From positions 18,710,087 to 18,774,086 of the forward strand of contig CM119266.1 in NCBI GenBank assembly GCA_051294375.1: a DNA stretch of 64,000 bases. The letters are read 5' to 3'. The translations under genes were made by a program, and so were the position numbers. The notes under the pieces were generated by a model that was not told where the DNA came from, did no database searches, and saw only the letters and a program-made list of their open reading frames with translations. This DNA comes from Paraspadella gotoi (taxonomy: Eukaryota; Animalia; Chaetognatha). This document shows positions 6,901 through 59,448 of the stretch, piece by piece. Position 1 is the stretch's first letter; each line of letters starts with the position of its first letter.

Positions 6901-7137
6901 TGTAGTGGTAGTATTTCATACCCCACTACTCGTCCGAGAATCAGCAGCACCTATGGCGCCGGAGGTAGCACGAGCTCCTCCCAACCCAAAGGACTCGGGT
7001 TCGCGCCCTGCTGATTCATACAAGTAAAAGCGGGACGGGGCGTCTAACCCACCTGTAGTGTCGGACTACAGCCCGATCCGAAGTTCGGGACCTTGTGTGC
7101 AACGGACGGTAAACTGCTCGCGGCATCGTCTTCCACA
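6901..7137 (+). mobile_element. Solo LTR, family A (tRNA-like cassette plus twister)
   Basis: TGT...ACA termini; TSD AAAA; second copy at 9404-9631; tRNA-like segment with CTCCCAA loop and GGTTCGCGCCC B-box-like motif. Confidence 0.88.
7017..7099 (+). ncRNA. Twister ribozyme (P5-type), family A
   Basis: P5 CAUACAAG/CUUGUGUG; GA-CGGG; U^AA at 7045/7046; T2 AC/GU (compensatory versus GC/GC in family B); P3 CUGUAGU/ACUACAG; P4 CCCGA/UCGGG; L4 UCCGAAGU. Confidence 0.85.
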
Positions 7138-7472
7138 AAAATAATTTAATGGGACTGTTCTTTTATTTCAGAAAAAAAAAATCAAACCTCTGGTGGGTAT
7201 ACTTAAACGGAATTTTATTGTTATTTTGTTTTTAAAAATGATCTTTGCTTTGTACCACCCTATGGTTTATTAAGACTAAAACATATAAAAATTCGCTATT
7301 TTGTCAACTCAACTCAAGTTAATAATCATAATTTATAATATTATGACCTATTTCAAATTAGTTGGTGGCGGACCAACAAATCGACTCAGTGAATTACTAG
7401 ATGCCTACTACATTGAACTACAGTGCAACAAGCAAGAGCGACATTTCTCCCGATTTAATCCGCCGAAATATT

Positions 7473-8430
7473 TTAAAAGCAGTTAGTCGTTGTTCGGTTT
7501 CTCTCACAAATGATGAGAAGGTCTTTTTTCTTCTTTTGACCCTGAATTCGACAGGGTTCTGTGCCCGTTTTAAAACCAGCCATAACCAGCTTTTGTAAGT
7601 AAAACGAAACGTAGTCGTATTCGCATGGCCGGCCGCAGGGAAGACCGTTGGATCCGAAGTTTCCTTTGGCGTCCTTCCACTTATTTACTATCGGTGTGAA
7701 CCCAAACTTACACTTCGTCAGCGGCGTTTTTACCCCATCAACTGTCGCCTCCGTGGCGCCCGGATAAAGAAACAGGCAATCTTTTCCTTTGTACGAATGG
7801 GGTTTTGGCGATCGATCTCTCCGACGACTGAGCCACTCATCCCATATGTATTCAGATTTCCCACTCTACAATGAATAACAATTTGACCTGTAGAATTCTA
7901 TTTCGTGCCGATGATGGCTCGCAATTAAAGCCGAAAAAAAAACATGTCCGTATTTTTCATGTTTTAAAAAAATATTTTATTGAACTCTGCGATTCCAAAA
8001 TTAAAATATAATTTATTATTATTAGAAATTGTTATAATATTCTGCTAAAATTTTATTAAAGGAGTTTGATTTAATCATAAACATTAAAAGGCACCAGATT
8101 AATCAATGCTAGAATGTTTTCTTCGATCGAGTCTAATGTATATTCTCAAAATCTCAATATCTGGGACATTTAACATGACTCACCTTTGTTTTAATTTCTA
8201 CAGTTTTAGGTATAGAATTTCGAATCAGGGCGAAAAGCTCTCCTTTTTTTATTTTATCCGCGACGCCCTGAGGCCAAGTCATCCACTTAGGATCGTCAGG
8301 TTTTGGAGTAGGCATCTGCTGTGTCGTTGAATTGTTAGCCCATGATGCTAACCATTTTTCAACAGTCCCCAATTCTTCTAGGCTATCTACGGTCCACACC
8401 TCCCAAGCGTGTACTTGAGCTGATACTTTT
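7473..8430 (-). CDS. Terminal exons (8184-8430 and 7473-7865), C-type-lectin-like
   Basis: WTVDSLEELGTVEKWL, YIWDEW, KDCLFL and PC...LIICER motifs; GTGAGT donor; phase-0 join. Confidence 0.65.
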
Positions 8431-11400
8431 CTGATGGAAATCAGTTTTGAAACCAAATCAAATTAAAAAATCTTAAAAGCATAAGGATCGTCGCAATCCG
8501 CATAAGAAAAATCTGGATTGACAACAAAATTTTGATACTAAAAAAAAAATCAAATTTGAGAAAAGAAAATTAATTTATAAACAGAAAAAAAATTATATTT
8601 TGCGATGTCAATTAAAAAAAATAGTAAAGTACCGAGGAAAATTAAAGTTACAGTTTCTCGAAAAACAAAAAAACCTTTTTCATTGTCAAAAAATTAACTG
8701 ATCAGCAGACGCAGCCCCTGAGAAAAAAAAAATAATAGCAAAATGATAACATGCACGAATGCGATGCTTAATTTTACGAGTTAAATCCTAATTAATTTTT
8801 TTTTTAATAAAAACGATGAGAGAGAGAGAGAGAAAGAGAGAAAAAAAAAAGAAAAAATCAAAAGGCAGCAGCAGAAGCAGCAGGAGAAAAGAGAGAAAAA
8901 GAGAGCCCCTGCAGAACCAGCTGCAGACTCAAAAGGCAGCAGCAGAAGCAGCAGGAGAAAAAAAAGAAAAAGAATAAGCCCTTGCAAAGCCAGCTGCAGA
9001 CTCATTTTTTTCCCTATGAATCAGTGACTAGGGAAAAGAGAGAGGGAGAGAGACATGTAATTAAAAAAGAAAAGAGAGAGAAAGAAATATAAAAATAAAA
9101 GACAGAAAATTTGTTTGTTTTGATAAAACGTAAACAAAACATATTTAATAACTGTCCTGACTGAATTTTAAGGACATCGATGATGAGAAGCTGTATATAA
9201 ATTTTTAGCTTCATACACCCAAATTTAATCATAAAAAAGGCTGATGACGACGACGACGCCACTTATGTGCAAAACCAGAGCAATATCGTCGCAAACGCAA
9301 AGCGATTGCGACGATAAAAACAATGATTATTTTAAAAGGGGAATAGGGAGATCAAGAGGTATGAAATAAGTGAAAATTTTAAATAAAAAAGTATTAAACA
9401 TATTGTCGCGGTAGTATTTCATACCCCGCTACTCGTCCGATAATCAGCTGGACCTATCGCGCCGGAGCTCCTCCCAACCCAAAGGACTCGGATTCGCGCC
9501 CTGCTGATTCACACAAGTAACAAGCCGGACGGGGCGTCTAACCCACCTGTAGTGACGGACTACAGCCCGTTCCGAAGTTCGGGACCTTTTGTGCAACCGA
9601 CGGTGAACTGCTCGCGGCATCGTCTTCTACAATATCCTTATACTATTAACCCTAATGTAATATCAAAATTTTAAAATCGTTTTTCACAGGAGGTGTGATT
9701 CTACCATCTTGGAAAATGAATAATGTATAATTTTCACGATAATTTTATGAAAATAATCATTTATCATATCATAATATTATAATATTATATTTATACTTAA
9801 TATAACCTCTGGGGGTTTTGATCATTTGATTATAATATTAAGCTATACTATATTAATAAATATTTATTATATTTTAATATTATTAAAATTTTAATATTGA
9901 ATAAATTTATTTTTAAACAGAATATTTTTATATACTTTTTTTTTATTCCTCACTCTGGTATATCTAATCATATTACGCAATAGATTCATTTGAATCAGAA
10001 AAATCGAACTTTTTTATATAGGTATATCGTTTTATTTGATCTTAAAATAAAAAGCTGTTGTGGTGGTATATTCACACCACCTCACGTCCACGATCGTTCA
10101 GCCAATACCATTGGCTCAGAGGGGGAACATACCATCCCAGGCGTTGTGTTCCATCCACAATTCCACAGGCCTAACGACTTCCCTCTGCAATGGAAAAGCG
10201 AGATTGTCCTAGGCTAGGGTAACCGCGCCAGTGACTGGATGCGTCACTGAAGGTCGGAAGCCCCCAAAGCCAACAGTGAGATACCCCATCCCTATGGGCA
10301 TCACAGGCAACCCGGCTGTTGCCATACTGTATAAGTTACTGAAACTAGAAAAGGTGTCAGCGTCTTATTCTTTTTCCAAGATGGTATATTAATATTGTCC
10401 GTTATTATTTTAGAGCATTTCAAAATAACGAAATATGAGAAAAATGAGAAAAATTTGGGAAAAAAATGCCAATACGCATATCAAAAAATATTAATTAATT
10501 AATTATTTGCACAAACTTGTTTGTTTTTAGGTCTTTTTATCATGTTACTGACCACGACAAAAGCAACGACGACGACTACCAAATCGACGAAGATTAAATG
10601 AATAAATGATTAATTAATTAAATATTTAATTAAAATATTATTGAATTCTTAGGAAAAACAGTTTATTTAAAATGTGGCAACGAATTTTATGACAAGTAAG
10701 TCGGACATGTTTCGACTCTTACAGTTTTAGAGTCTTCATCAGCAAGTGATTTTACAACAATTTTTCTCTTGAAAGTTGAGTTAGTGAGAAAGTGTGAGAT
10801 AGAGAGAGAGAACAAGAGAGAGATTCCAACAAAGAATTGAGTGAGGGATAGTGGTCAGATGTGAGGACAGTTCAAGGTAAGGACAGGGGAAGGAGAAGTA
10901 AGATTGTGAAAAATGAAAAGAGAGAGAGAGAGAAATGAAATTTAATACATTTAGTAATGTACAACATAGAAAATAAGAATAAATAAGTAAACTTAAATAT
11001 TAACTAAGTATTAATACTATTAAGAACAATGAAAAATAAATTAGTAAAATGAAGTGAAATTGAAGAATAAGTGGTGAGGGATAGGTAAGTAAAGAGTTAG
11101 TGAAAGTAAGTAAAAGAAAAGAGCTCAAAATGAGCTGGCCCCCCCCACTATAAGAGCCTAGTAGGGTGGATGACGGGAAATATCACAGGGCCTCGCTATT
11201 GAGCCAGAACGACTACACTATAAGAGCTAAGTAGGGTGGATGATAGAAAATATCACAGGACCTTGCTATCAAGCCAGAACGACTACACTATAAGAGCTTA
11301 GTAGGGTGGATGACGGAAAATATCACAGGGCCTCGCTATTGAGCCAGAACGACTGGCCGGGCAAATGAAGGACGTTAACGATAAGATCGGGTCATTGGCC

Positions 11401-14400
11401 TGTCATAGGTTGAGAGGATAGAGCTGTAGAGTTCAACATACTGGAGTCTGGTAAGGCTTCGCTTAGAAAAATGCCAAGTGCCACTCGTATATCTCTTTGG
11501 CATGATATACCTCTTCTGACGGTTCTCATTTTGAGCTCTTTTATTTTACTTACTTTCACTAACTCTTGACTTACCTATCCCTCACCACTTATTCTTCCAT
11601 TTAAATTTCACTTCATTTTACTAATTTATTTTTCATTGTTGTTAATACTTAATAGTATTAATACTTAGTTAATCTTTAAGTTTACTTATTTATTCTTATT
11701 TTCTCTGTTGTACATTACTAAATGTATTAAATTTCATTTATCTCTCTCTCTCTCTCTTTTCATTTTTCACAATCTTACTTCTCCTTCCGCTGTCCTTTCC
11801 TTGAACTGTCCTCACATCTGACAACTTGTCATAAAATTCGTTGCCACATTTTAAATAAACTGTTTTTCCTAAATCCTAAAACAAAGAAATCGAAAGTCTA
11901 TACATAATATTGAATTCTTTTATTGATTGTTAAATCAAATGAGTAATAATTGAAACCTGTATAGATATCAATACTTTCGGTTTACTTCTAATTTAACAGG
12001 AAGAGGTAAAAGATAGCTTTGAAAATGATCTCCCTGCTCAATAGCTTAATGTTTTTGAATGAAAATTTTTTTGTCTTACTTTCGTTCAGAAAGTAAGACA
12101 AATCGTTCAGATTTATAAAAAAAGTTTTTCAAAAAATATGATATTGATATTGCTCGAAAGCCCTTGAAAAACTGTATACTATGATATATTTTTCAATTCC
12201 CTAGCATAAAAATATCTTTAAGGTCCAGTCGAAGTTATAAGGTACATAATTATGACTAACTTAGTTTTAAAAATAGTCAATAGCAAGGTATATTACTTTT
12301 AAGAAATTATAATTGGTATTCCTGAATCCATTTTTAACGACTTTCTTGCAATGCCCATATTTGCACAAATTGCTTAAAAGAGCTATGAATTCCAAGTAAC
12401 AAATTTCCCTATATTTTTTATTGAAAAGCTCGAATTTGCCCCTCATCTTTTTTTGTCCATTACGGACTCAAAACAAAATCAATTATCCAAAAATTTATAC
12501 ATAAAAAATGAGTATGTCTTGTCTTTAAGTATCTCTTTTCAAAATCTTAAAATCTCTTCACGTTTTCATTTGGTGAATTTTTTCTAGCGGCGGGTTTTAA
12601 ATGGTCACGCTTAAATTGATTAATAAGTTAGTTAGTTGATAACTTGATTATATGGTGGACTAAAATCCACCAACCGTTCATCAGCGGCCATTGGTGCCAG
12701 AGCCAAGTCATTCGCCTCCCAACCCAAAGGTCCGGGGTTCTAGCCCGGTGGTCGTCTGGCAGTTAAGAGGGACGGGGCGCTTAACCCGCCTGTAACATGG
12801 TGTTACAGCCTGATCCGAAGCTCAGGGACTGCTTACATTGAACGGTTCTGTCACTAACACATAACAAATATCACTGTCTCTTCATTGGTGAGCCCGACTT
12901 CCGAACAAAACAGAAACAACCACTTTCAGGCGACATGCCTCAACCTGGCGATGCACTTTTCGCCCACAACACATCAGGCGACATGCCTCAACTTGGTGAC
13001 GAACTTTCCACCAACAACAACAATTCACTGAAGAGACGCAACAGACTTCTCCCTACGGGAGGGGGGGATGTATGGTGGACTAAAATCCACCAACCGTTCA
13101 TCTGTGGCCATTGGTGCTGGAGGCAAGTCATTCGCCTCCCAACCCAAAGGTCCGGGGTTCTAGCCTGGTGGTCGTCTGGCAGTTAAGAGTGACGGGGCGC
13201 TTAACCCGCCTGTAACATGGTGTTACAGCCTGATCCAAAGCTCAGGGACTGCTTACATTGAACGGTTCTGTCACTAACACATAACAAATATCACTGTCTC
13301 TTCAATTAATTAATTGATTGATTTTAATTTTAATTTAATTAATTGAATAATTAATGCGCTTGCATCTATATTTGATATAAAAAGGAAAAAAGCATAATAA
13401 AATAGTAAAACGAATGTTTTGCTTTCTCCATTGAAACTTATTTCCACTTAGACGATTCCATCGAAAGTTTAGATCCTGCTTAATCAGACACAAAATTTCA
13501 AGTCAATCGCCCCATCCATTCATGAGTAATTGGGGGACGGACGGACATCATTTTTTTGCATAATTTTTAATTTATAATATTGTTCCACTACGTTTTAAAG
13601 AGCTCCAGCTTTATATCACTGAATATATTCGTTACTCCAGTCCCTTTAATACCCTGGCTTGACATATTTGTTGTCTTGATCATATTCGCTCTCTTTAATT
13701 GAAGGTTCACCATCACATACTTCTCGCTCGATGTCCATTAAAGTTCCCATGAGCCTTGCATTGTCCTATAAAATAATAGAGGACTTTTGTCTTTTTCAAA
13801 ACTATGGGAAAGGTAGCCAGAATTCCAGATACTAGTAGAAAACTACTAGTACTAGTACTAGTATCTACTAGTACTAGTAGATATTTACCGCTGGACTGGA
13901 TACTAGAGTGGAGCTCTAGGGAGTAAAAATTTGAGTCAATTAACAATTATAATTATATAATGATAGTTTGATAGAATGATAGTATGAAAATCAACTACAA
14001 AAAATATTTCGCTTATATTGTTTGGGGAACAGAAGCGGAAAATACAATTTACAGCAGATTACTGATAAAAAAAAGTGCTTTTGATTTTTTGAACCCAAAA
14101 TCATACATTGCATACATTTTCATTTTTGCGATACAAATAGAAATATCAGGGTGAACTTTGATATTACATCACTGACTTGAGATACCTGGCCCGAGGCCCT
14201 AGATAACTACCAATCATTATATTATTGGATATCATCGCTTCCATAATTCCTCATACAGGTTAATAAATGTTGGGAAGAAACATTTATTTACGTGTATATG
14301 ACACGATGAAATTTATCGTGGCGTAGTGTATGATGCGATAAAAAAAAATTGGTGATTGAAATTATCTCTGAATGGGTTATATAAAACATCATGATTTTCT

Positions 14401-17400
14401 TCATATTATGGTGGACTAAAATCCACTAACCGTTCATCAGCGGCCATTGGTGCCGGAGGCAAGTCATTTGCCTCCCAACTCAAAGGTCCGGGGTTCTAGC
14501 CCGGTGGCCGCCTAGCAGTTAAGAGGGATGGGGCGCTTAACCCGCCTGTAACATGGTGTTACCGTTCAGGGACTGCTTATATTGAACGGTTCTGTCATTA
14601 ACATATAACAATAATTACTGTCTCTTCAATATATGAAAAAAAAGTTAAAAATAATATTTGGTAGTTACGATATGACTAAATATAGGATAATTTAAAAAAA
14701 TAAATATATATAATTATTTTTTTTAATAATAGTCTAATTATATAAACCATTTCATCCAATTATCTGTCTACACCTCATATCTTGTTGGTAAATTACTTGG
14801 TTCATCTAAGAATACCGAATTATAAAAAATTATTAGAAAAAATTGAATCTTTTTATCTTTCCATACATCTATTTGTTTGTTTATCTATCTGTAACTGCAA
14901 TGTCTAACCTTGTCTACAATGTAAGCTTTGTAGTCAGACTCCTGAAATACCAAAGTGGGGCAAGTTTTGCAATCCTTATTTTTTTTCTGATACTCGTCAT
15001 CAATGGTTTTTCGAGGTTTTCGAGGAACGCATTTGATATGCCAATTAAATTTTGGATCAATGAAGCATGTTGAGCCCTAGAGTAGCAAAGGTTCAAAATC
15101 ATAATTTAGTATTTCTGTTCGTTTTTCCCCCGAATTTATTTTTAGCTTTAAATATATTTTTAAACTTAAATAAACCAATCCTATTTTTCCCTTCAGTTTT
15201 TTTTAAAGAATTTCTTTCTACACTGTATATTAGTTTCACCTTTGGGCAACCACATTTTGGCTCCCTCTTTAAAAAACCTTGCCCATAACATACGGCTTCC
15301 TCTTGTACGGTTCTTGGATCGCACAGGTCCTGCGTTATCAACTGATTGTTTTCCATATCGCAGTATATAAAGCACAGTTGTTGCTTATGGGGGTCGTCCT
15401 TTATTGGAACCAATTTTGCAGAGATTCGGTTTGGGAAATCAAATTCAGTGTAAACGGTTGGAGGAAAGTTGTCGGCGCGACACTGGTACAATCTACCCTC
15501 GAAGAGGATGTCCTCACTTTTAGACCATCCAATTCTGGCAATATTCAACAGCAAGTCTTAGAAAACAATGTCGCTAAATAGGTAATCAGCTAAAAAGTCA
15601 TTTTATAACATACAACATATCAAGAATCGTTATTTTATTTATGCTTTGTTTGAAAATGAAAATGTCGCCATAACTTTAACCCTTTTGCCTTTTTAGTCGG
15701 ATTTGCTTTTAGCAGATTCCGACTCTTTCGGTCCGTCAGTCCCTCCCCAAAATCTTGTCGGTAAATCTTTTTCGTCATATCAGACCCTTGAATTATGATA
15801 AATTACGCAAAAAAAATTATGTCCGTCCATCAGTCCCGCTTAGCATTAAACTCCAATTACTCATTATTAGTGTGTGATTAAGCTGGATATAAAGTTTCAA
15901 TAGAATCGTAAGACTTTTTTACTTATATTTACTCATAATTAGTATATTTGTCAAGAAACTAGTAACGAACTAGTCTCAGTAGACCTGTCCTCGTCCGTTG
16001 ACCCGTCAGGCTGTTACTGGGTGACACTGTCGTCCACTCGCCTTGTCTTTGCAAGTGGGCGCGGTCTTGTCCAGCGCCCCGTCGATGGGTTTGTGGAAAG
16101 GTCCCAAGTCCATCACAAAAGTCAGAGGCTCCAGTCTTGTGACCTCTTGGTCGCCCGCAACTCTATGGACTTGTGGTGTACTTGTGTGGCATTCTTTGGG
16201 GCTCGTGGCCCTCACCACCATTTAAGGTAAAACTCATGGATTACTCATGGATTAATACTGTAGAAAAGGTAGACGTAGACGTGGCATCATTGTCCCATAA
16301 GGGGCCGTTTGGGGACGGGCCTGCTGTCTGACTCTGAAACTGTGTGAATAGAAAAGTGAGAGAAACGTGTACACTGTAATTGTAAGTGTACAGGTAAGGC
16401 AGAGAAAGCAGAGGAAAAATTATAAAGGAAACAATATTTATTCAAAATTGGATAGATAATTTGAAATGAAATTTGGTGTGTGGTTGGAAAGTATTTGATT
16501 AAGCTGGATATAAAATTTTGAAGGAATGGTAGGAATGGAAAAAAGTTTAAATTAGAAAACCAAAAGATATATTTATTTGAATTTTTAAAACTTTCTCACT
16601 CTCTATCTCTTTCTAATGGATTGATTGATTGATTTATGAATTTTTAAATTGATTGATTGAGAAATCTGTTATTATTTATGATGTTATGATGCAGTTATGA
16701 TTAGTTATGTTTTTCTCTCTCTCTATTTATTTAAGAATTTTCTTGTCACATTTATTGGACATCATTGTATCTGACTGCTAAATTATCCTAGGCAGATCCG
16801 ACATTGTTTGCTCAAACTTGTTTTTATTCGAATGTAAAAATCGAGGAAAAAGTTATCTACTTAGTTATTAACTTTTTCAAAGCTCCTCAGTGGCTCAGTA
16901 CCATCCCATTGTGCGTTGCAGGTTTAGTCCTGAGATTGTCATGTCAAAACCGCTTTAATTCATTTTATATTTCAACACTTATGTTTTAAAAACTCGTTAC
17001 TTTTTAAACTTAATCCCAGACCCCTCGTAAAAATATGACGCGATAAAGTCTCGAAAAAAAAATATTTAACGAAAGATACATCCTTCATTAATTTTACCAT
17101 TCCTTAATGTTTATGGAGTAACTTTAAATTTTTTTTACTCTAATCCTTATTCTTAACATATAGCATCAGCTTGTGATATAAGTTACCAAAACATAATATT
17201 TTATATGAAGATTTTAAGGCATTTTAAAAAAATATACAGGAAGTAATATACAGGTAAGATGTAACCACATCGCTTTATCAAACTGAAAGTTTATGATTTA
17301 CTTAAAGGCCTTTATTGGCTATGTATTTATACCAAAATAATTATACCATAATGAGACATTCTACCCTGAAAGGTAATTCAGAATAAAGTTGTCTGCTCCA

Positions 17401-39400: not shown

Positions 39401-40632
39401 TATGGTGGACTAAAATCCACCAACCGTTCATCAGCGGCTATTGGTGCAGGAGACAAATAATTCGTCTCCCAACCCAAAGGTCCCAGTGGTTTCCTAGTAG
39501 TTAAGAGGGACGGGGCGCTTAACCTGCCTGTAACACAGTGTTACAGCCTGATCTGAAGCTCAGGGACTGCTTAAGCAGTGCTTATATTGAAAGGTTCTGT
39601 CACTAGCATAACAATAATTACTGTCTCTTCATTGGTGAGCTCGACTTCCAAACACTACAGCAACAACAACACTTTCAGGCGACATGCCTCAACCTGTCGA
39701 TGCACTTTCTGCCAGCAACATATCATGTCTCAACTTGGGGATGAACTTTCCACCAACAATTCACAGAAGAGATGCAACAGACTTCTTCCTAGGGGAGGGG
39801 GGATGTATAGTAAGGCGTAGTAAATTTTCTAAATTTAACTTTAATTAAAATTCTAAAAGTGAGGAACGAACAACATTATATTAATGAACATTTATGTAAT
39901 AAAAAAATTTATAATAAATTTTACAATTTACGCAGTAGGCCATATTTATACTAGTACTAAACCAATAAATGTTAAAATTTCAAAACAGTTTTTTGTAAGA
40001 TTTTTTTGCAGATTTGGATTCGTCATAAAAAGTTGATAAATAGAAATATAACTCTTTTTGAAAAATTCCTTCATTAAGTGGGTCAAAAATGAGAAAAAGC
40101 TATATTTTAAGCTGAAAATTAATTTTTTCCACATTAAATATAGTTTTTTTAATTTTTAACCCACTTAATGAAAGAATTTTTAAAAATGAGTTATATTTTC
40201 TTTTGTCAACTTTTTACGAGGAATTCAAATCTGCAATCAAAATTAAGAAAAGCCTATTTTGAAATATTTCGATTTTATAAGGTTAGTACTATATATAAAT
40301 ATAGCCTACTGCGAAAATTAAAAAACATAAAATTAATTTTTTTTACAAATTAATGTTCACTGATGGTATGTTGTTCATAATTGACTTTTAGAATTTTCGT
40401 ATGTAACTTTCACTACGCCTTAATGTATAGTGGAATAAAATCCATTAACCATTCATAATCAGCCATTGGTGCCAAAGGACCGGGGTTCTAGCCCGGTTGC
40501 CGCATTGCAGTTAAGAGGGATGGGGCGCTTAACCCGCCTGTAACACAGTGTTACAGCCTGATCCGAAGCTCAGGGACTGCTTATATTGAATGGTTCTGAC
40601 ACTAACACACAACAATCGTTACTGTCTCTTCA
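39401..40632 (+). mobile_element. Second full TRIM of family B, 3' LTR interrupted by a hAT MITE
   Basis: LTR1 39401-39631; PBS TGGTGAGCTCGAC; PPT 39791-39803; LTR2 split by the insertion at 39811-40422; TSD AGGG; twister fold retained at 40507-40580. Confidence 0.92.
39811..40422 (+). mobile_element. 612-bp hAT element nested in the TRIM 3' LTR
   Basis: Same TIRs; 8-bp TSD ATGTATAG; partial third copy at about 42590-42815. Confidence 0.92.
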
Positions 40633-41046
40633 AGGGTCGACTTTATTTCCAAATGATTTTCTCATTTTTAAATATTTTCAAATAATTAACCTGCTCGTGA
40701 TGTCCGACAAAGAGAGAGAAAATACACAGCGTTAAGCTTGATAAGAGTCACGAACAAAGTACTGAGAGTATTAAGAGCGACTTTATACAGAGAAAAATTT
40801 GGCACGCCTCTAAACAGTCAACATTTTAATCTTCCACAATGTAAACAAAAATGCAGAATGGCATCAAATAATTTTAAAGAGCTTTATTTATATCAATATT
40901 ACTGTTTCATTTAATTTTTCGTCGCCACAGGTTTAAAAAAACATTAACGTCGCGGAGCCATCCTCGCTGACTTTTTTTCCGTCGACCTCATTGTTATATA
41001 ATATTATTAGTTTTTTTGACAACATCGACGGAGCGGCCTTTGGCTG

Positions 41047-47000: not shown

Positions 47001-50000
47001 TGTATTGAAAAAAAAGCGCGGAATAAATGGAATAGAAATTTTTAGAAGGAAAAAAATAATCGAATTTTCAAAACAAACGATCACGCAAGAGGACAGATAG
47101 GGACGACACACACAGAGAGACAGAGAGAGAGAGAGAAAAGAGAGAGAGAGAAGAGACAGCCGCTGCAGAGAAAAAGAGAAAGAGAAAGAGCGATATATAT
47201 AATAATTAAGAGAGAGAAGAACTGCTACAGCCCTTACTCGTTAAAGATCAGCAGTACTATATGGCGCCGCAATGTAGCGTGAGCTAATTGTTTGTTTTGA
47301 ATAAAAATGTAAAAACAACATAATTAAAACTGTCCTGACGTCAATTTTTAAGGACATCGATGATGACAAGCTGAATATGAAGATTATAATTAATCTATTA
47401 ATTAATTAATATATTATTAATTAATCTTATTAATAATTAATCTATTAATTATTAATTAATTAATCTATTAATTAATTAATTAATCTATTAATTAATTATC
47501 ATTAATCTATTAATTAATTAATTAATATCTATTAATTAATTAATACTATCGTAGGCAGATCCGACATTGTTTGCTCAAGACTTGTTTCTTTTCTCTGTCT
47601 CTCTTTCTCTCACACTCTCTCTAATCTCTCTAATCTCAGAAAACTTTCAAAGCTTGGCCTCCCTAACTGACTATTTGTTGGGCCTGCCTACCTGATTAAA
47701 ACTGAAAAGCTTGCTTCCCTAACTGACTGTTTGCTGGCCTTCCTACTTGATTAAAACTGAAAGCGTGCCTCCCTAAACTGACTGTTTGCTGGCCTGCCTA
47801 CCTGATTAAAATGAAAAAGCTTGCCTTCCTAACTGACTGTTTGCTGGCCTGCCTCCCTGATTAAAACTGAAAAGCTTGCTTCCCTAACTGACTGTTTGCT
47901 GGCCTTCCTAACCTGATTAAAACTGAAAAAGCTTGCCTCCCTAACTGACTGTTTATCTGCCTGCCTACCTGATTAAAACTGAAAAGCTTGCTTCCCTAAC
48001 TGACTGTTTGCTGGCCTTCCTACCTGATTATAACTGAAAAGCTTGCCTCCCTAACTGACTGTTTGCTGGCCTGCCTACCTGATTAAAACTGAAAAGCTTG
48101 CCTTCCTAACTGACTGTTTGCTGGCCTGCCTACCTTGATTTAAAACTGAAAAGCTTGCTTCCCTAATTGACTCTTTGCTGGCCTTCCCTATCTTGATTAA
48201 AACTGAAAAGCTTGCCCTCCCTAACTGACTGTTTGCGCTGGCCTGTCTACCTGATTAAAACTGAAAAAGCTTGCCTTCCTAACTGACTGTTTGTTGGCCT
48301 GCCTACCTGATTAAAACTGAAAAGCTTGCTTCCCTAACTGATTGTTTGCTGGCCTTCCTACCTGATTAAAACTGAAACAGCTTTTCTCAACTGACTGTTT
48401 GCTGGCCTTTCCTACCTGATTAAAACTGAAAAGCTTGCCTCCTAACTGACTGTTTGCTGGCCTGCTACCTTGATTAAAACTGAAAAGCTTGCCTTCCTAA
48501 CTGACTGTTTGCTGGCCTGCCTACCTGATTGGAAACTGAAAGCTTGCCTTCCTAACTGCAGCTTTGCTGGCCTGCCTACCTGATTAAAACTGAAAAGCTT
48601 GCCTCCCTAACTGACTGTTTGCTGGCCTTCCTACCTGATTAAAACTGAAAAAGCTTGTCTCCCCTAACTGACTGTTTGCTGGCTCTGCCTACCTGAATTA
48701 AAACTGAAAAGCAAAATTAAATCACCGTCAGTCTCAGTAAAAAAAATAATAATCCATTAAACTAAAAAAAAAAACCGGTATTATCTATATCTCCACTCTG
48801 AACTTTATTTCAAGTTTTTTATTCTCCCGCGCCTTAAATGCATTTGCGCATTTAAGTTTCAAACTAAAAATTTGTACTAATAATTCTTCTGTTTTACTTG
48901 TTAAATTTAGTTTTGTTAAACCAGGTATTATGTTATAGTAATTGACATCATCAATCCGATATGTGTTGAATGAAAATATGATATCTCCATGATGCATTGA
49001 TTTATATGATGCTTGTAGTCGGGCATTGCTAAGTGCTCACCCCACCCTATAAGCCATGAACTCTTTCAGGCTCATGACACAGAACTAGGTACCGAGGTTT
49101 CGAAATCTCAACCGGTACTCGGTCACCGCGGGGAGAGGTGCGGACGGCCATGAACCCGCCTTGGGGGCGGTGGCGGAGTACGCCTTCAAGCCTGGTTCAA
49201 GCCCCAGGACCCGTTCCATGTCTGCTAGAGGGGTTTAGTAGAAGTTATGGATAGTTCATGCTCTGCCCACTGTTAGGCGCCGTATCCAGCATATGGCTTC
49301 TTGATATGAAACTACCGCTTGTCTTTTTTGCCAACATATCACGCAATTGAATTCCTCAAGAAAAATATGTTACTATTGTAGCGATGCGTCTAGATGAGCC
49401 AAGCTACATGTTGGATGTTCGGTCAAAGTGCGAGAATCCGGATGAAAAATTCAACCTTTGAAGGAACACGTCGTGGAAAGACTCAGGAGCAATTCTCGAA
49501 GGCTGAGTGCACTGGGTAAGACCATCAGAAATATTTAAGCCACGAAGGAAGTAGTTAGAGACTTTTAGATTTCGGTCCAGGTTTTCATTTTTAAGAATGG
49601 AAAGCAAAAAAGTTGGACTAATTAAACGATATCAATATTGTGGTTATTTAAGATAAACTGGTTTAAAAAATAAGTAAGTTTATTTGATTTTTGTAATGCA
49701 ATAATGAGGTAGAATCTAAAAAACATATTAGGACAGCTAAGAGATAAGAGCACAATAAACGGCAACTCATTTATAATTAAGAAAGATTTTTTCAGACCAA
49801 ATTGAGACCTTCGGGCTGCGCAAGCGATCCGTTCACGCTGAGACGGCGTCGGTATGGATGGGGGTAACCTCTCAACAACAATAATTCGGACCCAACTCTC
49901 GATGGAGATGAAAAAAAAAAAGAGATTCGGGAATTAGAGGGGATAAGCCACTTAACAATCACTTTTTAAAGAATTTGTATTCCAAATCGTAAGGTTTAAA

Positions 50001-51308
50001 TTTAAAATGATTGATTGTGGTTTCATTACTAAAAAACAATAAACCTCAGATGTTGTTCTTCTATTCATTGTTTTTTATTTTTTTTGAGCTTTCATTGTGA
50101 TTTATTGTAATTTTATAGATCGAATGCACTAAAATTCCATGCATAAGGCCAGAACAGGGTAAAAACTAAGAATTCTGTAATTATAAATAACGTTTAGAGC
50201 ATCCCTTATGGGATAACGAAATAGGCCTTTTTAATCATCCACATATAAGTCTCCTTATAGACATTATAGTGTCACGGTGAAGCTATGCGATATATAAACT
50301 CTCTGACCTTACGCTAATTTTCTTCTTACGCTGCTGCCTCTCCTATTATTTTTTTTTGTTAAGTACAGCTAAAAACATGAAAAATAATATATAGGTATAA
50401 GAGAAAGTCTATGATAGGTTGTTTGTAGACATAGAACGGCAATAAGGTCCGATTTTTAGTTTATTTGTTCCTTAAATGCCCCCAGGGCTATAAAAATTCT
50501 TCTCTAGAAGTAGGGTCTAAGGGTAAACGGATCTAGAGAAGATTTAAGGCGTTCGTTATTATAATCGATTAAGAGTCCTGGAAACAAATAAATTACTTGC
50601 CGTGCTTGACTGAGGTGACCTCAGCTGTGAGAAATGAATGTAAAGCTACTCCGGTACCTAGGAATTCTTGGGTGGACTACGACAGAAGACGGACAATAAT
50701 TTGAATGACCTATAGGAAGCTAGTTGTCTTGGTGTAGAGCTGACGACAAAAAAAGATGCCTCTCAAGCAGATGATGAGACAGTGCAAAAGATAATCTGAG
50801 GAGACCATTATCTCGTTATTGTTGAGTTCCTCGCACAGTACATTCTCTTTCAGAGAGGATCAGGCTGTAACACTGACCGTGTTCACAGGCGGTATTAAGA
50901 GAGCAGCCCCGTCCCTCTTAATACTGCTGNNNNNNNNNNNNNNNNNNNNNNNNNNNNNNNNNNNNNNNNNNNNNNNNNNNNNNNNNNNNNNNNNNNNNNN
51001 NNNNNNNNNNNNNNNNNNNNNNNNNNNNNTAAAGTTAAACTTAGGAATTTTACTACGCCTTACTGTCCAGGCTTCCTTCACCTGTAGCAAGAGAAATATC
51101 CACCGACGGCATTGGATACAAAGATGAGGCAAGCGGATAAGTTGACCGAGACAACGACGAGGCGCTCGGTTGTGCCAAGAGTCTTGCTCCCAACCTCGTC
51201 GAAATAAACGACAAGGACGACGAAGAAGACGACGGCGGAGGCGAGAAAAAGACTGTTGGTCAGCACGAAGGTGATCACCAGGAACGGGCATCGTCCCCTA
51301 CACCCCAT
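41047..51308 (-). CDS. Spliced gene: ~219-aa four-transmembrane protein (tetraspanin-like topology)
   Basis: Exons 51082-51308, 43273-43465, 41833-41951 and 41047-41167 are all phase-compatible. Four hydrophobic segments; GGYFSCYR|KNLRGIVVY resembles a tetraspanin TM2-TM3 loop. Confidence 0.75.
42333..42510 (+). mobile_element. 3'-truncated LTR, family D (tRNA-like cassette plus partial twister)
   Basis: TGTGGCGAA/TTCGCC 5' hairpin; B-box GGTTCAATCCC (42423-42433); GUGU-GA ... UAA-ACAC-GC-CAGUGA/UCACUG, cut off in L4. Confidence 0.65.
42818..43087. mobile_element. Probable solo LTR with extensive internal base pairing
   Basis: GC-rich 270-bp island ending TCGTCTTCTACA (same end as family A); near-TSD CTAG/CTAT; nested inverted repeats. 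Confidence 0.45.
45363..47587 (+). mobile_element. Helentron-associated (HINE/DINE-1-like) non-autonomous element
   Basis: 5' hairpin AGTCGG(A)TCTGCT...GATCTCGACT; degenerate (GTCC)n; 3' subTIR GCAGATCCGAC followed by a short stem-loop; T-rich flanks. Relatives at 15690-16825 (+) and about 25700-28122 (-). Confidence 0.65.
47648..48712 (+). repeat. ~55-bp minisatellite, about 19 copies
   Basis: Unit AAAAGCTTGCCTCCCTAACTGACTGTTTGCTGGCCTGCCTACCTGATTAAAACTG. Confidence 0.95.
49014..49293 (+). mobile_element. Probable solo LTR, family E, highly structured, with a degenerate twister-like core
   Basis: TGTAG...CATA ends; imperfect TSD TGCT/TG(G)CT; P3-like UUGGGGGCG/CGCCUUCAA followed by CCUGG-UUCAAGCC-CCAGG. 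Confidence 0.45.
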
Positions 51309-54300: not shown

Positions 54301-55462
54301 CAGGCTGCCGAATTTAGTAATAAATAATAACGATTAGGATCAGATAAATCCGTCAGAAATTATAATCAAAATAAAAACCGAGAGAATAAAGGTACTACCT
54401 TTCTGGTAACAGGGTCAAGATCTAATTAAATTGATGCCGGCTTTCTTAATCACCATGTTCACTTCAAACCTTCCAAACCATCTCCAATAATAATAATATT
54501 AAGAAATATTACTAGGATATTAGTAATGAGACAACAAAAGCTATATACGTACGCATATATATATATAAGTGAAACGGACAGAGAGACCGATCGAAAAGTG
54601 ACTAATAGAGTTGCTCCGCGAGTACTCGCGGCGCAACTAAAAAATCATGTTTTGCAACCAAAAACTTCCGCGCGAATGAATTTTAAAAAAAAGGAAGATT
54701 TTTTCAAGAGTAGAAAAGAGGATGAGATTGAGGGACGGCGGAAGGAGGGCAAGAGAGAGAGAGAGAGAGAGAGAGTAATTCAAATAAGAGACGTGTGATT
54801 TGGGCTCGCGTGACCCATTTTTTGAGTTTCAAGAGAAATTTAAAAAAAAATTTTGACAAAAAAGGGGGATCAATGAGTAGGGGTACCCAATCTAACTTGG
54901 GCGGGCCAAAACTTTTATGCAAGTACCCTCTGATTAATTAAATGTACATAAAATTTCTAACATTACGTTACCTTCAGTCGTTAGCTTAGCGCCCTATCCA
55001 CCCTGGTGAGCCCATTCTGTCGAGCGTATTCCAGTCTTCTCCCTTCACTGGAAGCAGCGCAGAGTGGGTTACAATCTGGAGGGCATGTAATCGGGCATTG
55101 CAATAAGTTCAACCTGCTTATAGGTGAAGTGCATATTTATGCATATGTACTTTATTATATTTGATTATTTATTGATTTTTAGTATCGCCAGCCGACCTAA
55201 TTCAAATGCTGATGCAGTGATAGTAACTAATGAAAATTGCATAATTACTTGCTTTAATTTCATCACATGCACTAGTAGAATGCTTAATTAAATAGTTATT
55301 TTCACTATGCACTGATACTCCATAGTGAAAATAAGTATTTAATTATGCATAATTACTTGTTTTACTATTCTCTAATAATAATACAGCTTGTATTACTATT
55401 ATAAAACAGTATTTAAAGGAAAATTTTGTTTAATGTTTCAGTAACGATTTATTTTGTATTAA

Positions 55463-55495
55463 AACGTTTCGGCTTTAATGCAAGCCTTCATCGGC
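55463..55495 (-). ncRNA. Hammerhead motif with a CUGA>CCGA mutation (duplicated at 56429-56463)
   Basis: CCGAUGA-AGGCUU-GCAUUA-AAGCC-GAAACGUUU in a pseudo-LTR-like context. Confidence 0.6.
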
Positions 55496-56467
55496 GTTAA
55501 AACAGTTGTGAATTTTGAAAAGTATTTCTGTGCAAAAGTAAAGGAGAGAGAGAGAGGTTTTTTAAAAATTTTATTGTATTTTACATATTCTAAGCTCATT
55601 TTACAAGGGGTGCTCTAAAAATGTTTTTTTCAAACTCAACCTTCTTGTCTGTGAAAGAAAAATCGTAATTTTTCATTATCTTCAACTGCAAAAAAAAAAG
55701 CTTGACACCCTGCTTGTTTATCATAATAAAATTTTAAAAAATTAGATAGCTTGCGACATATTTTACAAAGCAAGACATCATTGTGTTTGAGTTTCAAGAG
55801 AAATTTAAAAAAAAATTTTGACAAAAAAGGGGGATCAATGAGTAGGGGTACCCAATCTAACTTGGGCGGGCCAAAACTTTTATGCAAGTACCCTGCTGAT
55901 TAATTAAATTGTACATAAAATTTCTAACATTACGTTACCTTCAGTCCGTTAGCTTAGCGCCCTATCCACCCTGGTGAGCCCATTCTGTCGAGCGTATTCC
56001 AGTCTTCTCCCTTCACTGGAAGCAGCGCAGAGTGGGTTACAATCTGGAGGGCATGTAATCGGGCATTGCAATAAGTTCAACCTGCTTATAGGTGAAGTGC
56101 ATATTTATGCATATGTACTTATTATATTTGATTATTTATTGATTTTTAGTATCGCCAGCCGACCTAATTCAAATGCTGATGCAGTGATAGTAACTATGAA
56201 AATTGCATAATTACTTGCTTTAATTTCATCACATGCACTAGTAGAATGCTTAATTAAATAGTTATTTTCACTATGCACTGATACTCCATAGTGAAAATAA
56301 GTATTTAATTATGCATAATTACTTGTTTTACTATTCTCTAATAATAATACAGCTTGTATTACTATTATAAAACAGTATTTAAAAGGAAAATTTTGTTTAA
56401 TGTTTCAGTAACGATTTATTTTGTATTAAAACGTTTCGGCTTTAATGCAAGCCTTCATCGGCGTTAA

Positions 56468-57348
56468 GGGGACCCAGTGATAAAAATGATATCATAAGCT
56501 TAAGGGTCTATCATCAAAGGAATTTGAATGGTGATAGTCATTAATTTTTCTTTTGGCACGGGAAAGTGGTAAAAAAATTCCTATCTCTTATTGTAGTGGA
56601 AACAAAAATTTAATAATTATGAAAAAAACATTTAGTTGACCCTACCTAAATATTTATATAATCCATTATTTTATTTTTGCATTAGAAAGCATTTTTTACT
56701 AAATTCCAATTTTTTATTTTTTACTGTACAAAGCTACAATTTTAGGTTTAAGCCTCATTGAACAAAGGCTTTACAAGACTAATATTTTTATATTTTTATA
56801 TTTAGTTAAAAGCAGATAAATCAAACCTAAATTCTATTCTTACAGAAACAAAACTGTAATAATTATTAATTAATATTCATATATCATCCCTTAAATGTAT
56901 TATTAAACTATATTTATTCCTAATTATAATAATAAAAAATTTAGCAAAAGTAAAGAATCTTTCTCTTCTTTTTATATTTATATTACTTCAAAGAGTTTTA
57001 TTTTCATCCAATTAACAGAATCATTTGAAAAAGAAAGTTAAATAAAATCAGTCGATACCTTAAATTTTGATTCATTCCTAGTTTTTTTTCTTATAAATCT
57101 TTATGATAAAAGCTGAAAATCTTTTTAAAATTAGATCTACTCTTTTTTGGAAAAAAAATTTTTAAACTTGAAAAAGATTTTCTTCTTACCGATTTTTTAA
57201 AGAAAATTAAGCTGGCTGATTTTATCGAATTTTTTAACTACTTTCCAAATATTATAAAAGAAAAAATTATATAGTCAGAACCAGCTTAAGTTAAAGGGTC
57301 AAACGTTATGTTTTTTCAGCTTTTTACCCCCCTGTTTCACTTGGTCCC
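56468..57348. mobile_element. Non-autonomous DNA transposon with TTAA TSD (Kolobok-like)
   Basis: TTAA|GGGGACCCAGTGA...TCACTTGGTCCC|TTAA; the empty site GCGTTAAAACAG is present in the adjacent duplicate; purine-starting termini argue against piggyBac. Confidence 0.8.
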
Positions 57349-58232
57349 TTAAAACAGTTGTGAATTTTGGAAAAGTATTTCTGTGCAAAAGTAAAGGAGA
57401 GAGAGAGAGGTTTTTTAAAAATTTTATTGTATTTTACATATTCTAAGCTCATTTTACAAGGGGTGCTCTAAAAATGTTTTTTTCAAACTCAACCTTCTTG
57501 TCTGTGAAAGAAAAATCGTAAATTTTTCATTATCTTCACTGCAAAAAAAAAGCTTGACACCCTGCTTGTTTATCATAATAAAATTTTAAAAAATTAGATA
57601 GCTTGCGACATATTTTACAAAGCAAGACATCATTGTGTTAAATTGTATTGATAATTTTCTTTTAAATATAACAACCTTTATACAAGGAATTTAATTTTAT
57701 TATTTATCATCCATTTAATTAAGAAAAAGAATTTCGCGGAATAGCCATTGGAAAGGGTTCATTGACTGACTTAATGATCGAATTTTTTAGGTTTCTTTAC
57801 TGCCCCCATTTCACGAGACATAAAAGGTCATGATAATCATGTCAGTAGGTCCAGATTATATGTACGTTTTCTGCAACCTGCATTCTGAATTTTCTTTTTT
57901 ACCCTTTCAAATAAATGTNNNNNNNNNNNNNNNNNNNNNNNNNATTAAATAAAAAAAATTATTTGAGAGAATGATCGGCGTGGAGGATGCCATTGGTAAG
58001 CCTTAGTAACCCCACTTCCCGATCGAATTTTTAAACCAGGTTTTTTTTTAATCTATTCGAGACATAACACTAGATATTGATTCTATTAATTTTTTATTTC
58101 TTACATGATATTTTACGTAATCAGAGAAACGTTTAGCGTGTCAAAAAATAGGGAAAAAAAGAGTAAAACGTTCTGACGAATTTAGAAATTTATGGAGGAA
58201 TCTACTTATACCCCTTTTCCCCAGTTCTACTA

Positions 58233-58296
58233 CTAGGGTAACCGCGCCAGTTACAGGTGGCGTCACTGAAGGTCGGAAGCCACCAAAGCCAACAGT
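58233..58296 (+). mobile_element. Fragment of a family C LTR (3' half of the twister)
   Basis: CTAGGGTAACCGCGCCAG...GGTCGGAAGCCACCAAAGCCAACAG matches 10214-10276. Confidence 0.8.
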
Positions 58297-59171
58297 TAGG
58301 GCTGAAAGGGCATAATTTTTTTTACATATACATAGATGCTCCCTCTATTTCTAGAAGACAACACTAACATCCCTCTCCCCATAACATTATAAAAGAATAT
58401 ACTCTATATAAAGAATATAATTAAATCTAATATATAGTGAAATTATTAAATTCTTACATTTATTTTAAAATTTTAATATAAAATTTTAAAGTCTAATTTA
58501 GTAAAACAAGTAATCTTGTAATATTTCATGCATATACAAAGGCAGTAAAAAGTATTGTTAACCTTTGTTAACCTTTTTATATTTCAACATATTTTACAAT
58601 TTACATAGAAAAAGTCTTTTTGTCCTCCTTTTTGTCCGCTACAACACTCAGGTTGCAAAGGGAATATATATGCACATATATGCACATAGGGTTGAAATAG
58701 GGTTACTCTCCCTCTTCTCTCTCTTTATGACTCTCTCCTGGCCTCCCTTACCCCTCTTCTTAGATTCACGCACGCGCATCTCATATTCCGGCGAATTTGT
58801 GGAAGAAAGCGTGACGGCGTCACGGGCACCGTCGAGGCGAGCCTAAAAAAATGGCGGCGCAATTTAAAGGGATGAAGACGCCCCGCGGGAGACGTGAAGA
58901 TTTTAGGAACGAAGGAAATTTATTGGATAAAAACTCGCACAGAAAATCTATGGAACGGCGTTGCTGTGGTTCATGGTCGCTATGCTGCTATGGTGAGAAA
59001 GTTGAAATGATTATCGATATTAGTATTGAAATATAATTTTTTAAAATTTCATTTAATAGGTTTTATCCATCTTTATTTTTAAAGACTGGAATATTAAAAG
59101 GTCATGATTGCATTACAAATAGCAATGTAAACTTAAAATCAATGGTTACAATTATAAAAAAATAAGGTTAT

Positions 59172-59448
59172 TTTGGCAGTATATTCACACCGCCTCAATT
59201 CCACCATCTTTCAGCTAATACCATTGGCTCAGAGGGCAACGCACTATCCAAGGCGTTGCGTTCCATCCAGCATCCACACTGCGTTCCATTCCACAGTCCT
59301 AACGACTTCCCTCTGCGTTGCAAAGCGAGACCGTCCTAGGGTAACCGCGGCAGTGACTGGAGGCGTCACTGAGGGTCGGAAGCCCCCAAAGCCAACAGTC
59401 AGATGCCCCATCCCAATGGGCATCACAGGCAACCCGGCTGTTGCCATA
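59172..59448 (+). mobile_element. Solo LTR, family C, with twister at 59315-59392
   Basis: TSD TTAT; GA-CCG pairs with L4 (U)CGG (T1 covaries versus families A/B); predicted cleavage 59342/59343. Confidence 0.85.

Follow-up and report, generated by a model that had tools for sequence, protein, structure and literature searches.

Why would long terminal repeats (LTRs) that have diverged into separate families keep one ribozyme-like fold, and what could that fold do for a retrotransposon? The question is raised by a 64,000-nt stretch of the chaetognath Paraspadella gotoi (assembly GCA_051294375.1, contig CM119266.1, positions 18,710,087 to 18,774,086, forward strand; hereafter the window), AT-rich and repeat-rich DNA with a single open reading frame (ORF) of at least 150 aa and three related LTR families, A, B, and C. 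A sequence-only reading had proposed that twister pseudoknots covary across these families and that a whole lineage of LTR elements is under selection for an active ribozyme. The LTRs of all three families carry a twister motif with cross-family compensation, and its status as a predicted ribozyme is supported by the comparisons below.

Results

Twister Motif with Compensatory Changes

Where about nine recognisable LTR copies had been estimated, nine copies and two fragments were located (Table 1): solo LTRs A1, A2, B2, C1, and C2, and the LTR pairs of two family B elements, B1 and B3. All seven insertions are flanked by a 4-bp target-site duplication (TSD). The motif stands in both LTRs of B1 and of B3. 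It runs in the order P5, junction, P2 3′ strand, GA, T1 3′ strand, a short P1 hairpin, UAA, P2 5′ strand, T2, P3, P4, 8-nt L4, P4, and P5; this order and the L4 pattern (U-nnn-AA-nn) agree with the Schistosoma mansoni table in PMC8501958 as a type-P5 circular permutation. In the B1 5′ LTR the predicted cut would fall between 12782 and 12783 (LTR position 132/133). The strands quoted earlier for T1, T2, P3, P4, P5, and an enclosing helix were all found, and the UAA, GA, and L4 AA described as constant are, together with the L4 U, identical in eight of eight parsed copies from the three families, each with an 8-nt L4 (B2 lacks the region). These bases include the N-AA cleavage loop and conserved GA of twisters, for which A is given as the general acid and G as the general base.

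The pseudoknots change by compensation. For T1, the pseudoknot between L4 and L1, families A and B have CCG/CGG and family C has CGG/CCG, against CCC/GGG in the S. mansoni reference (PMC8501958), a departure from that template by compensatory swaps only; the longer UCCG/CGGG once assigned to T1 keeps its three Watson–Crick pairs, but the extra U-G lies outside T1 as drawn in the crystal-structure review PMC5408937. Four of eight copies, spanning all three families, have T1 wholly paired, the other four carry a wobble or mismatch, and one double change falls in C. T2, paired in seven of eight copies, reads AC/GU in A and GC/GC in the other two families. Across 60 nt, A1 and the B1 5′ LTR differ at 14 positions, with 13 pairs unchanged, four doubly changed, and none broken. 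The corresponding counts are six, eight, and two for A1 against C2, and nine, five, and two for the B1 5′ LTR against C2, the double changes of family C lying in T1, P3, and P4. MAFFT put family C out of register; C was compared at hand-set coordinates, and the A+B pair count covers six rows. The enclosing helix does covary between A and B, with six aligned pairs and two double changes, and was seen in those two families only. The whole LTR is structured (z = −3.1 and −2.6), and Rfam returned no hammerhead match in the window.

Individual copies are less complete than their families. The full structural descriptor was passed by only two of the nine (A at 6901, B at 12651), and the pairing of family C is composite: the 10059 copy is faulty in T1 and P4 (two T1 wobbles, one P4 mismatch, and a 5-nt duplication within the P1 linker) and the 59172 copy in T2. 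The T1 and P4 defects of the 10059 copy are not shared by most other C copies, which contigs from this organism show to have different bases there, and each B3 twister has one T1 wobble. Four of five substitutions at paired core positions of B copies (13237, 39521, 39545–39554, 40521) are at CpG sites; the window CpG observed/expected ratio is 0.97.

Chance levels were estimated with a scored descriptor composed after the motif had been seen. Six of nine copies scored 35.0–42.5, with one background match at 25. Two hundred shuffled windows gave 45 matches with a maximum of 36 (four reached 34, one reached 36), and with four LTRs shuffled 5000 times each, no shuffle scored as high as 28. In the six A+B rows, 96.8% of cells pair, vs. 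25–44% with partners slid; paired cells, doubly changed cells, and covariation score all beat shuffles (0/500), all three being inflated by relatedness. When the 14 A–B differences were placed randomly, no pair was broken in 33 of 200,000 trials, a figure biased in favor of the motif because the structure was derived from the same copies. Among B contigs, sites varying at ≥5% of depth numbered 3 of 75 in the core vs. 18 of 159 in the rest of the LTR (p = 0.051), two of the three core sites lying in the P3 loop. Formal covariation statistics would need more than three independent families. That selection maintains an active ribozyme can fairly be argued from the cross-family compensation; the argument is qualified by the number of families (three), a doubly changed pair count no better than shuffles, a nonstandard P2, and a competing hairpin.

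Family B as a Miniature LTR Retrotransposon

Family B is a terminal-repeat retrotransposon in miniature (TRIM). Element B1 (12651–13304) is 654 bp long with a repeat unit of 420 nt, and both paired B elements (2/2) have two LTRs, a primer site, a polypurine tract, a TSD, a length below 1 kb, and no coding region. The one open frame of the B1 interior that was searched has no longer homologue, and the interior was taken as noncoding. The primer site is identical at 12 of 13 positions to the tRNA-Trp complement printed in the PMC10886601 supplement.

A tRNA-Trp primer site, 4-bp duplications, and TGT...ATA ends are reported for the CsRn1 clade of gypsy elements (PMC2582038), as is the 5′ motif TGTGGYG (PMC3601003), with which family C opens. 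The primer site and 4-bp TSDs fit that clade, as do the TGT...ATA ends of family C, so family B reads as a TRIM whose helper is likely a CsRn1-clade gypsy element.

Two side observations concern the element's ends. The B LTRs at 12651, 14407, and 39401 start with TA rather than TG; a TG stands between the polypurine tract and the B 3′ LTR, yet none of the three integrated 5′ ends has it. The LTR's final 9 nt (12876–12884) are complementary to interior positions 13029–13037, upstream of the polypurine tract, and this helix would draw the primer site and polypurine tract together.

tRNA-Like Block in the LTR

Just upstream of the motif the LTRs contain a putative, degenerate tRNA-like block. Relaxed ARAGORN reports a Gly(CCC)-like 73-nt cloverleaf at LTR positions 34–106 in three of six LTRs, all family B, ending three bases before P5; the B boxes fall at tRNA positions 9 and 53 of the 73-nt cloverleaf, and B2 has the highest-scoring block. 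Box A-like and box B-like positions are 6954/6998 in A1 and 10112/10147 in C1, a spacing of 44 nt in A1 and B and of 35 nt in C1. No AATAAA, ATTAAA, or TATA box occurs in the eight of eight LTRs examined, with one AGTAAA in A1; AATAAA is conserved in modeled Metaviridae LTRs. The evidence for the block is moderate overall, and on sequence grounds it is likely an RNA polymerase III (Pol III) internal promoter.

A Candidate Second Ribozyme Class in the Same Slot

Helenus elements (Kojima 2024, PMC10886601) are TRIMs with a tRNA-derived Pol III promoter and, in animals, 4-bp TSDs. In part 9 of 11 of that paper's supplement, read by eye, a T run of at least four directly follows the tRNA-like block in 10 of 12 LTRs. 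The two without one, Helenus-2_SyJa and Helenus-2_SyUm, belong to Synergus wasps and are close relatives, hence one event; they are also the sole families returned by a tRNA-Trp primer-site search of the available supplement. Right behind the tRNA-like block, Helenus-2_SyJa-LTR and Helenus-2_SyUm-LTR have, by eye, a full type III hammerhead layout: stem III and a GUC site, a 7-bp stem I, CUGAUGA, a 4-bp stem II, GAAA, and complementary loops 1 and 2. In the main text of PMC10886601, “hammerhead” and “ribozyme” occur in one reference title only and “self-cleav” nowhere. Eleven twister/LTR motifs of the window, searched in the available supplement, were not found there in a twister context. That tRNA-Trp-primed TRIMs should have motifs of two unrelated ribozyme classes at one and the same place is an argument for self-cleavage as the selected function.

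Copies in Public Sequencing Runs and Searches for Relatives

Nine public sequencing runs of one organism contain the window, none of them recorded as RNA, and contig tables of four runs stood in for genome-wide copies. They show the families to be of high copy number, the family B unit alone occurring in 13,739 contigs of run X1. Contigs of that run set the B LTR ends, with 180 distinct flanks before 12651 and 152 after 12884; for family C, contigs likewise place one end at 10058/10059 (51 and 48 contigs) and the other at 10326 (133). LTR depth exceeds interior depth several-fold in all four runs, so most B LTRs, judged by this comparison, are solo or flank another interior. A head-to-tail LTR–LTR junction (12884 to 12651) appears in three, two, and one contigs of three DNA runs. 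Flanks at the B and C LTR ends (12651, 12884, 10326) lean to ATAT, which suggests a target-site preference, yet ATAT accounts for two of seven TSDs in the window. Run X9, guessed to be RNA, shows many differing flanks at both LTR ends, as the DNA runs do, and was unused as expression evidence.

Pattern scans for relatives gave 0, 3, and 1 matches in viral contigs, 14 in metagenome contigs, and 14 in prokaryote genomes; 0 of these 32 loci passed the structural descriptor, loci L015–L017 have no Rfam match, and all were set down to chance. A blastn search of B1 against phages gave no match. These viral, metagenome, prokaryote, and phage collections hold little animal DNA. The “whole lineage” first proposed accordingly stands as three families within one organism, with no relative in those collections.

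Other Features of the Window

Coordinates of the LTR elements and their parts are collected in Table 1. A miniature inverted-repeat transposable element (MITE) of ~610 bp, presumably hAT-like, has terminal inverted repeats and an 8-bp TSD and lies at 39811–40422 within the B3 3′ LTR, and a second copy lies at 29839–30430. Frames at 18806–19393 and 19944–20944, which we take to resemble a Penelope-like reverse transcriptase (RT) end and GIY-YIG endonuclease, gave no Pfam match and are followed by a tandem array of 71- to 77-nt units. Duplications of 684 and 293 nt, 99% identical, occupy 54821–55500, 55786–56467, and 57349–57639 and may reflect recent duplication or an assembly artifact. The repeat at 54.8–56.5 kb, which contains TGGTGAGCCC, was rejected as a further copy, having no twister; Rfam microRNA and small nucleolar RNA matches in the window all fall far below the gathering score. 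An epidermal growth factor (EGF)-like exon of a host gene lies at 30592–30966 (minus strand) and a 55-nt tandem satellite at 47595–48704.

Table 1. LTR elements of the window and their parts (positions of the window)
Feature	Position	Strand	Remarks
Family A solo LTR (A1)	6901..7137	+	TGT...ACA ends; TSD AAAA
Enclosing helix, A1	6931-6936 with 7103-7108	+	six pairs align with B; two double changes
A1 twister motif	~7017-7099	+	predicted cut between 7045 and 7046; every core pair formed
Family A solo LTR (A2)	9404..9631	+	TSD ATAT; mismatched in P2 and P4 closing pair
Family C solo LTR (C1)	10059..10326	+	TGT...ATA ends; TSD CTGT
Family B element B1, 5′ LTR	12651..12884	+	TA...CA ends; every core pair formed
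Enclosing helix, B1	12672-12680 with 12839-12847	+	LTR positions 22-30 with 189-197
tRNA-like block of B1	12684..12756	+	degenerate, 73 nt; box A 12692, box B 12736; relaxed ARAGORN only
Type-P5 twister motif, B1 5′ LTR	12759..12832	+	GA 12771-12772; UAA 12782-12784; L4 12814-12821
B1 interior	12885..13070	+	186 nt, noncoding; opens with primer site, closes with polypurine tract
tRNA-Trp-type primer site of B1	12886-12898	+	fits CsRn1-clade consensus
Polypurine tract of B1	13057-13068	+	interior end
B1 3′ LTR	13071..13304	+	97% identity to 5′ LTR; element TSD ATTA; one P2 and one T1 mismatch
Family B solo LTR (B2)	14407..14628	+	TSD ATAT; deletion removes most of P4 and L4
Second family B TRIM (B3)	39401..40632	+	TSD AGGG; 5′ LTR 39401-39631; interior with primer site and polypurine tract
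B3 3′ LTR	39806-40632	+	interrupted by MITE 39811-40422
Family B twister fragment	50857..50929	-	degenerate; adjoins assembly N gap
Family C twister fragment	58233..58299	+	fragment only
Family C solo LTR (C2)	59172..59448	+	TSD TTAT; T1 wholly paired, one T2 mismatch

Discussion

A Proposed Twister-Based LTR Retrozyme

The likely mechanism is decided by features absent from the earlier reading: the putative tRNA-like block, the primer site for tRNA-Trp, and the architecture of a TRIM. From the observed LTR ends, 4-bp TSDs, primer site, polypurine tract, motif, and compensatory pairs we infer promoter use, cleavage, a circle, and a helper. We see an even chance that these elements are Pol III-driven animal LTR retrozymes that use a twister, their RNA being cleaved in both LTRs, circularized as a unit, and served in trans by the RT and integrase of a CsRn1-clade gypsy element. 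Transcription by Pol III would begin at the tRNA-like block, around LTR position 34, and continue across both LTRs; the 5′ LTR transcript would then include the whole ribozyme (109–182), and read-through would add the 3′ copy. Cuts at 132/133 of each LTR would release a unit-length RNA (420 nt in B) without terminal redundancy, which would be circularized and copied by the helper's enzymes. An RNA cut twice in this way would lack the redundancy that ordinary strand transfer needs, an argument also made for plant retrozymes (PMC4918200), where circularization resolves the lost redundancy and accounts for solo LTRs and multimers. The P5 permutation would fit such a circle, with P2, T1, P5, and the enclosing helix keeping both cut ends paired.

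Several results pull the other way, beginning with the fold itself. No twister match was returned by Rfam 15 for the whole window or for single LTRs, even at E ≤ 10. No family has the normal P2 of four Watson–Crick pairs: in A and B a 3-nt 5′ strand gives two pairs, a bulge, and a third pair, and C has three pairs plus a C-A first pair. P4 is closed by A-U in B and A1, by U-U in A2, and by G-C only in C; the review PMC5408937 describes four P2 pairs, their length perhaps critical, and calls a G-C pair closing P4 “essentially invariant.” P1 consists of a 6- to 8-nt linker with one to three pairs. When A1 and B are folded without pseudoknots, P3, P4, and P5 appear, but P2 gives way to a hairpin that pairs the 3′ strand of T1 with the 5′ strand of P2; with pseudoknots ignored, this competitor is better by 6.3 kcal/mol in B, 2.3–5.4 in A1, and 5.7–7.2 in C2, a cost of the twister scaffold that the pseudoknots would have to repay. 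The four doubly changed pairs of the A+B alignment were equaled by 103 of 500 shuffles. For the promoter, the relaxed ARAGORN threshold was passed by 136 of 1000 shuffles and a stricter one by 25 of 1000 (and, among the LTRs, by B2 only), default ARAGORN and the Rfam tRNA model gave no match to the LTRs, and the joint box A and box B pattern occurs in four of nine LTRs (1–3% of shuffles). The absence of a T4 run from eight of nine LTRs is a weak sign, 43–73% of shuffles also lacking one. A T4 run lies in the B1 interior, as T4 runs do in the Synergus Helenus-2 interiors; the B3 interior has none, and nearly all contigs differ from B1 at 12960. The helper was not found: a Pfam scan of 28 of the 114 listed window ORFs gave no RT, integrase, or gypsy protein, its sole match being a weak DUF5641. 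Interiors are known for B only, A and C being solo in the window, and an interior–LTR–interior span occurs in none of the contigs listed.

P1 is reported to be dispensable, and among 1948 natural type-P1 twisters (PMC11662667) activity was independent of P1, of P2 length or defects, and of most P4 defects; defects of the pseudoknots or catalytic bases were not tolerated, and ~94% of those assayed cleave. The elements conserved here are those reported as intolerant of defects in that set, which favors the twister reading. By the P2 and Rfam tests the motif is a twister variant and not a textbook member, and it probably cleaves, perhaps at a reduced rate.

Alternative Readings

The contig data do not separate the retrozyme from three other accounts. 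The main one, which we consider unlikely, though worth keeping in view, makes a leaky twister the replacement for the Pol III terminator: RNA left uncut in the 5′ LTR and cut in the 3′ LTR would keep ~100 nt of redundancy (the tRNA-like block and the 5′ half of the ribozyme) and yield a linear TRIM RNA without a circle. The ribozyme does occupy the T-run slot of most Helenus LTRs in the supplement part cited above, Cassandra RNA runs from the 5′ LTR into the 3′ LTR with short redundancy, and with its short P1, unusual P2, and rival hairpin the ribozyme may be a slow one. U3 would be transcribed in the 3′ LTR only, so the enclosing helix could form locally there only; however, the B scaffold costs 6.3 kcal/mol with or without U3, and that of A is only 1–3 kcal/mol lower with it, which is no clear switch. 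Plant LTR retrozymes, moreover, cut in both LTRs and accumulate circles (PMC4918200). A descendant of a twister that no longer cuts, its helices and pseudoknots kept for packaging, dimerization, or end-pairing, is less probable still. It would account for the nonstandard P2 and P4 closing pair, the missing Rfam match, and the competing hairpin, and the structure throughout the LTR noted above shows pairing conserved beyond the ribozyme. Against it, GA, UAA, and the U and AA of L4, unpaired bases with catalytic or tertiary roles, do not vary among the eight parsed copies of three families, and another ribozyme class fills the same slot in Synergus Helenus-2; this reading also sits badly with the high share of natural type-P1 twisters that cleave despite P1, P2, and P4 defects (PMC11662667).

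Very unlikely, in our judgment, is that these are LTRs of an autonomous, Pol II-transcribed CsRn1-clade gypsy element in which the twister trims read-through RNA, in the manner of hepatitis delta virus (HDV)-like ribozymes in R2 and of the Perere-3 twisters, and the likeness to a tRNA is a coincidence. The several-fold excess of LTR over interior depth in four runs, the statistical weakness of the tRNA evidence, and the LTR-type RT domains downstream of some S. mansoni twister variants would suit it. Yet both paired copies in the window have a short noncoding interior, no gypsy protein appeared among the 28 ORFs scanned, and eight of eight LTRs show no poly(A) or TATA signal, in contrast to the AATAAA conserved in modeled Metaviridae LTRs; a coding element cut in both LTRs would also lose the cap and poly(A) tail on which it depends.

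Implications

A broader proposal extends the Pol III retrozyme reading to animals at large: an unrecognized class of tRNA-Trp-primed TRIMs in which the terminator behind the tRNA-derived promoter has been swapped for a self-cleaving ribozyme of interchangeable class (the type-P5 twister of the present elements, the type III hammerhead of Synergus Helenus-2), always permuted so that the cut ends stay paired, and with small circular RNAs as the route of transposition. We offer it tentatively, as a possibility somewhat short of an even chance. Should twisters act in each LTR of these elements, a TRIM, a promoter for Pol III, and a self-cleaving ribozyme, each known already, would be newly combined; the type-P5 twister would gain a biological job, and there would be a high-copy supply of small circular RNAs that bears on how viroid-like agents arose. 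Since Rfam misses the motif, animal genomes may contain more ribozymes of this kind than have been counted.

Comparison with Known Systems

Literature from 2016–2026, in the portions available, ties hammerheads to LTR retrozymes, mainly of plants, and to animal non-LTR tandem-repeat retrozymes, and twisters to RTE elements; a figure legend mentions LTR-type RT domains downstream of some S. mansoni twister variants. Full-text searches of open-licence PMC and bioRxiv papers found neither an LTR-borne twister nor a ribozyme assigned to Helenus or CsRn1 elements, and no paper in which “ribozyme” and “CsRn1” occur together. Among the literature searched, the predicted self-excision and circle life cycle had been met only in plant elements with a different ribozyme.

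Those plant LTR retrozymes (PMC4918200) are likewise noncoding, with a ribozyme motif in each LTR, a primer site, a polypurine tract, a 4-bp TSD, many solo LTRs, and an inferred gypsy helper. The elements here differ in having a type-P5 twister rather than a type III hammerhead and a tRNA-Trp rather than a tRNA-Met primer, in their smaller size (654 bp, 420-nt unit), in the tRNA-like block within the LTR, and in their animal host; cleavage and circles are predicted only. With the type-P5 twisters described in PMC5408937, PMC8501958, and PMC11662667 the motif shares element order, the UAA loop, GA, an 8-nt L4, a 3-bp T1, a 2-bp T2, P3, P4, and an open P5, and it departs from them in its T1 swaps, T2 AC/GU in A, short or mismatched P2, A-U P4 closing pair in A and B, 6- to 8-nt P1 hairpin, and lack of an Rfam 15 match. 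The Perere-3 twisters (RTE, S. mansoni; PMC8501958) also lie in an animal retrotransposon and resemble the motif in P3 and junction sequence, but they are of type P1, at the 5′ end of an autonomous long interspersed nuclear element (LINE) with one cut per RNA, whereas the motif here is of type P5, in both LTRs of a noncoding element.

On the side of the mobile elements, the CsRn1 clade (PwRn1, AgCR; PMC2582038, PMC3601003) shares the primer site TGGTGA(G/C)CCCG and the 4-bp TSD, along with the TGTGG start and ATA end of family C; the likeness is of cis marks only, with no coding region here and a family B that opens with TA. Helenus/TRIMp3 (PMC10886601) corresponds in its TRIM form, 4-bp TSD, and gypsy-type primer site, and its LTR has the box A/box B block to which the putative tRNA-like block here is likened. 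The correspondence is closest for Synergus Helenus-2, which shares the tRNA-Trp primer, the TGTGG start, the absence of a T run, and a ribozyme motif behind the tRNA block; the Synergus motif is a hammerhead, and the tRNA-like block is more decayed in P. gotoi.

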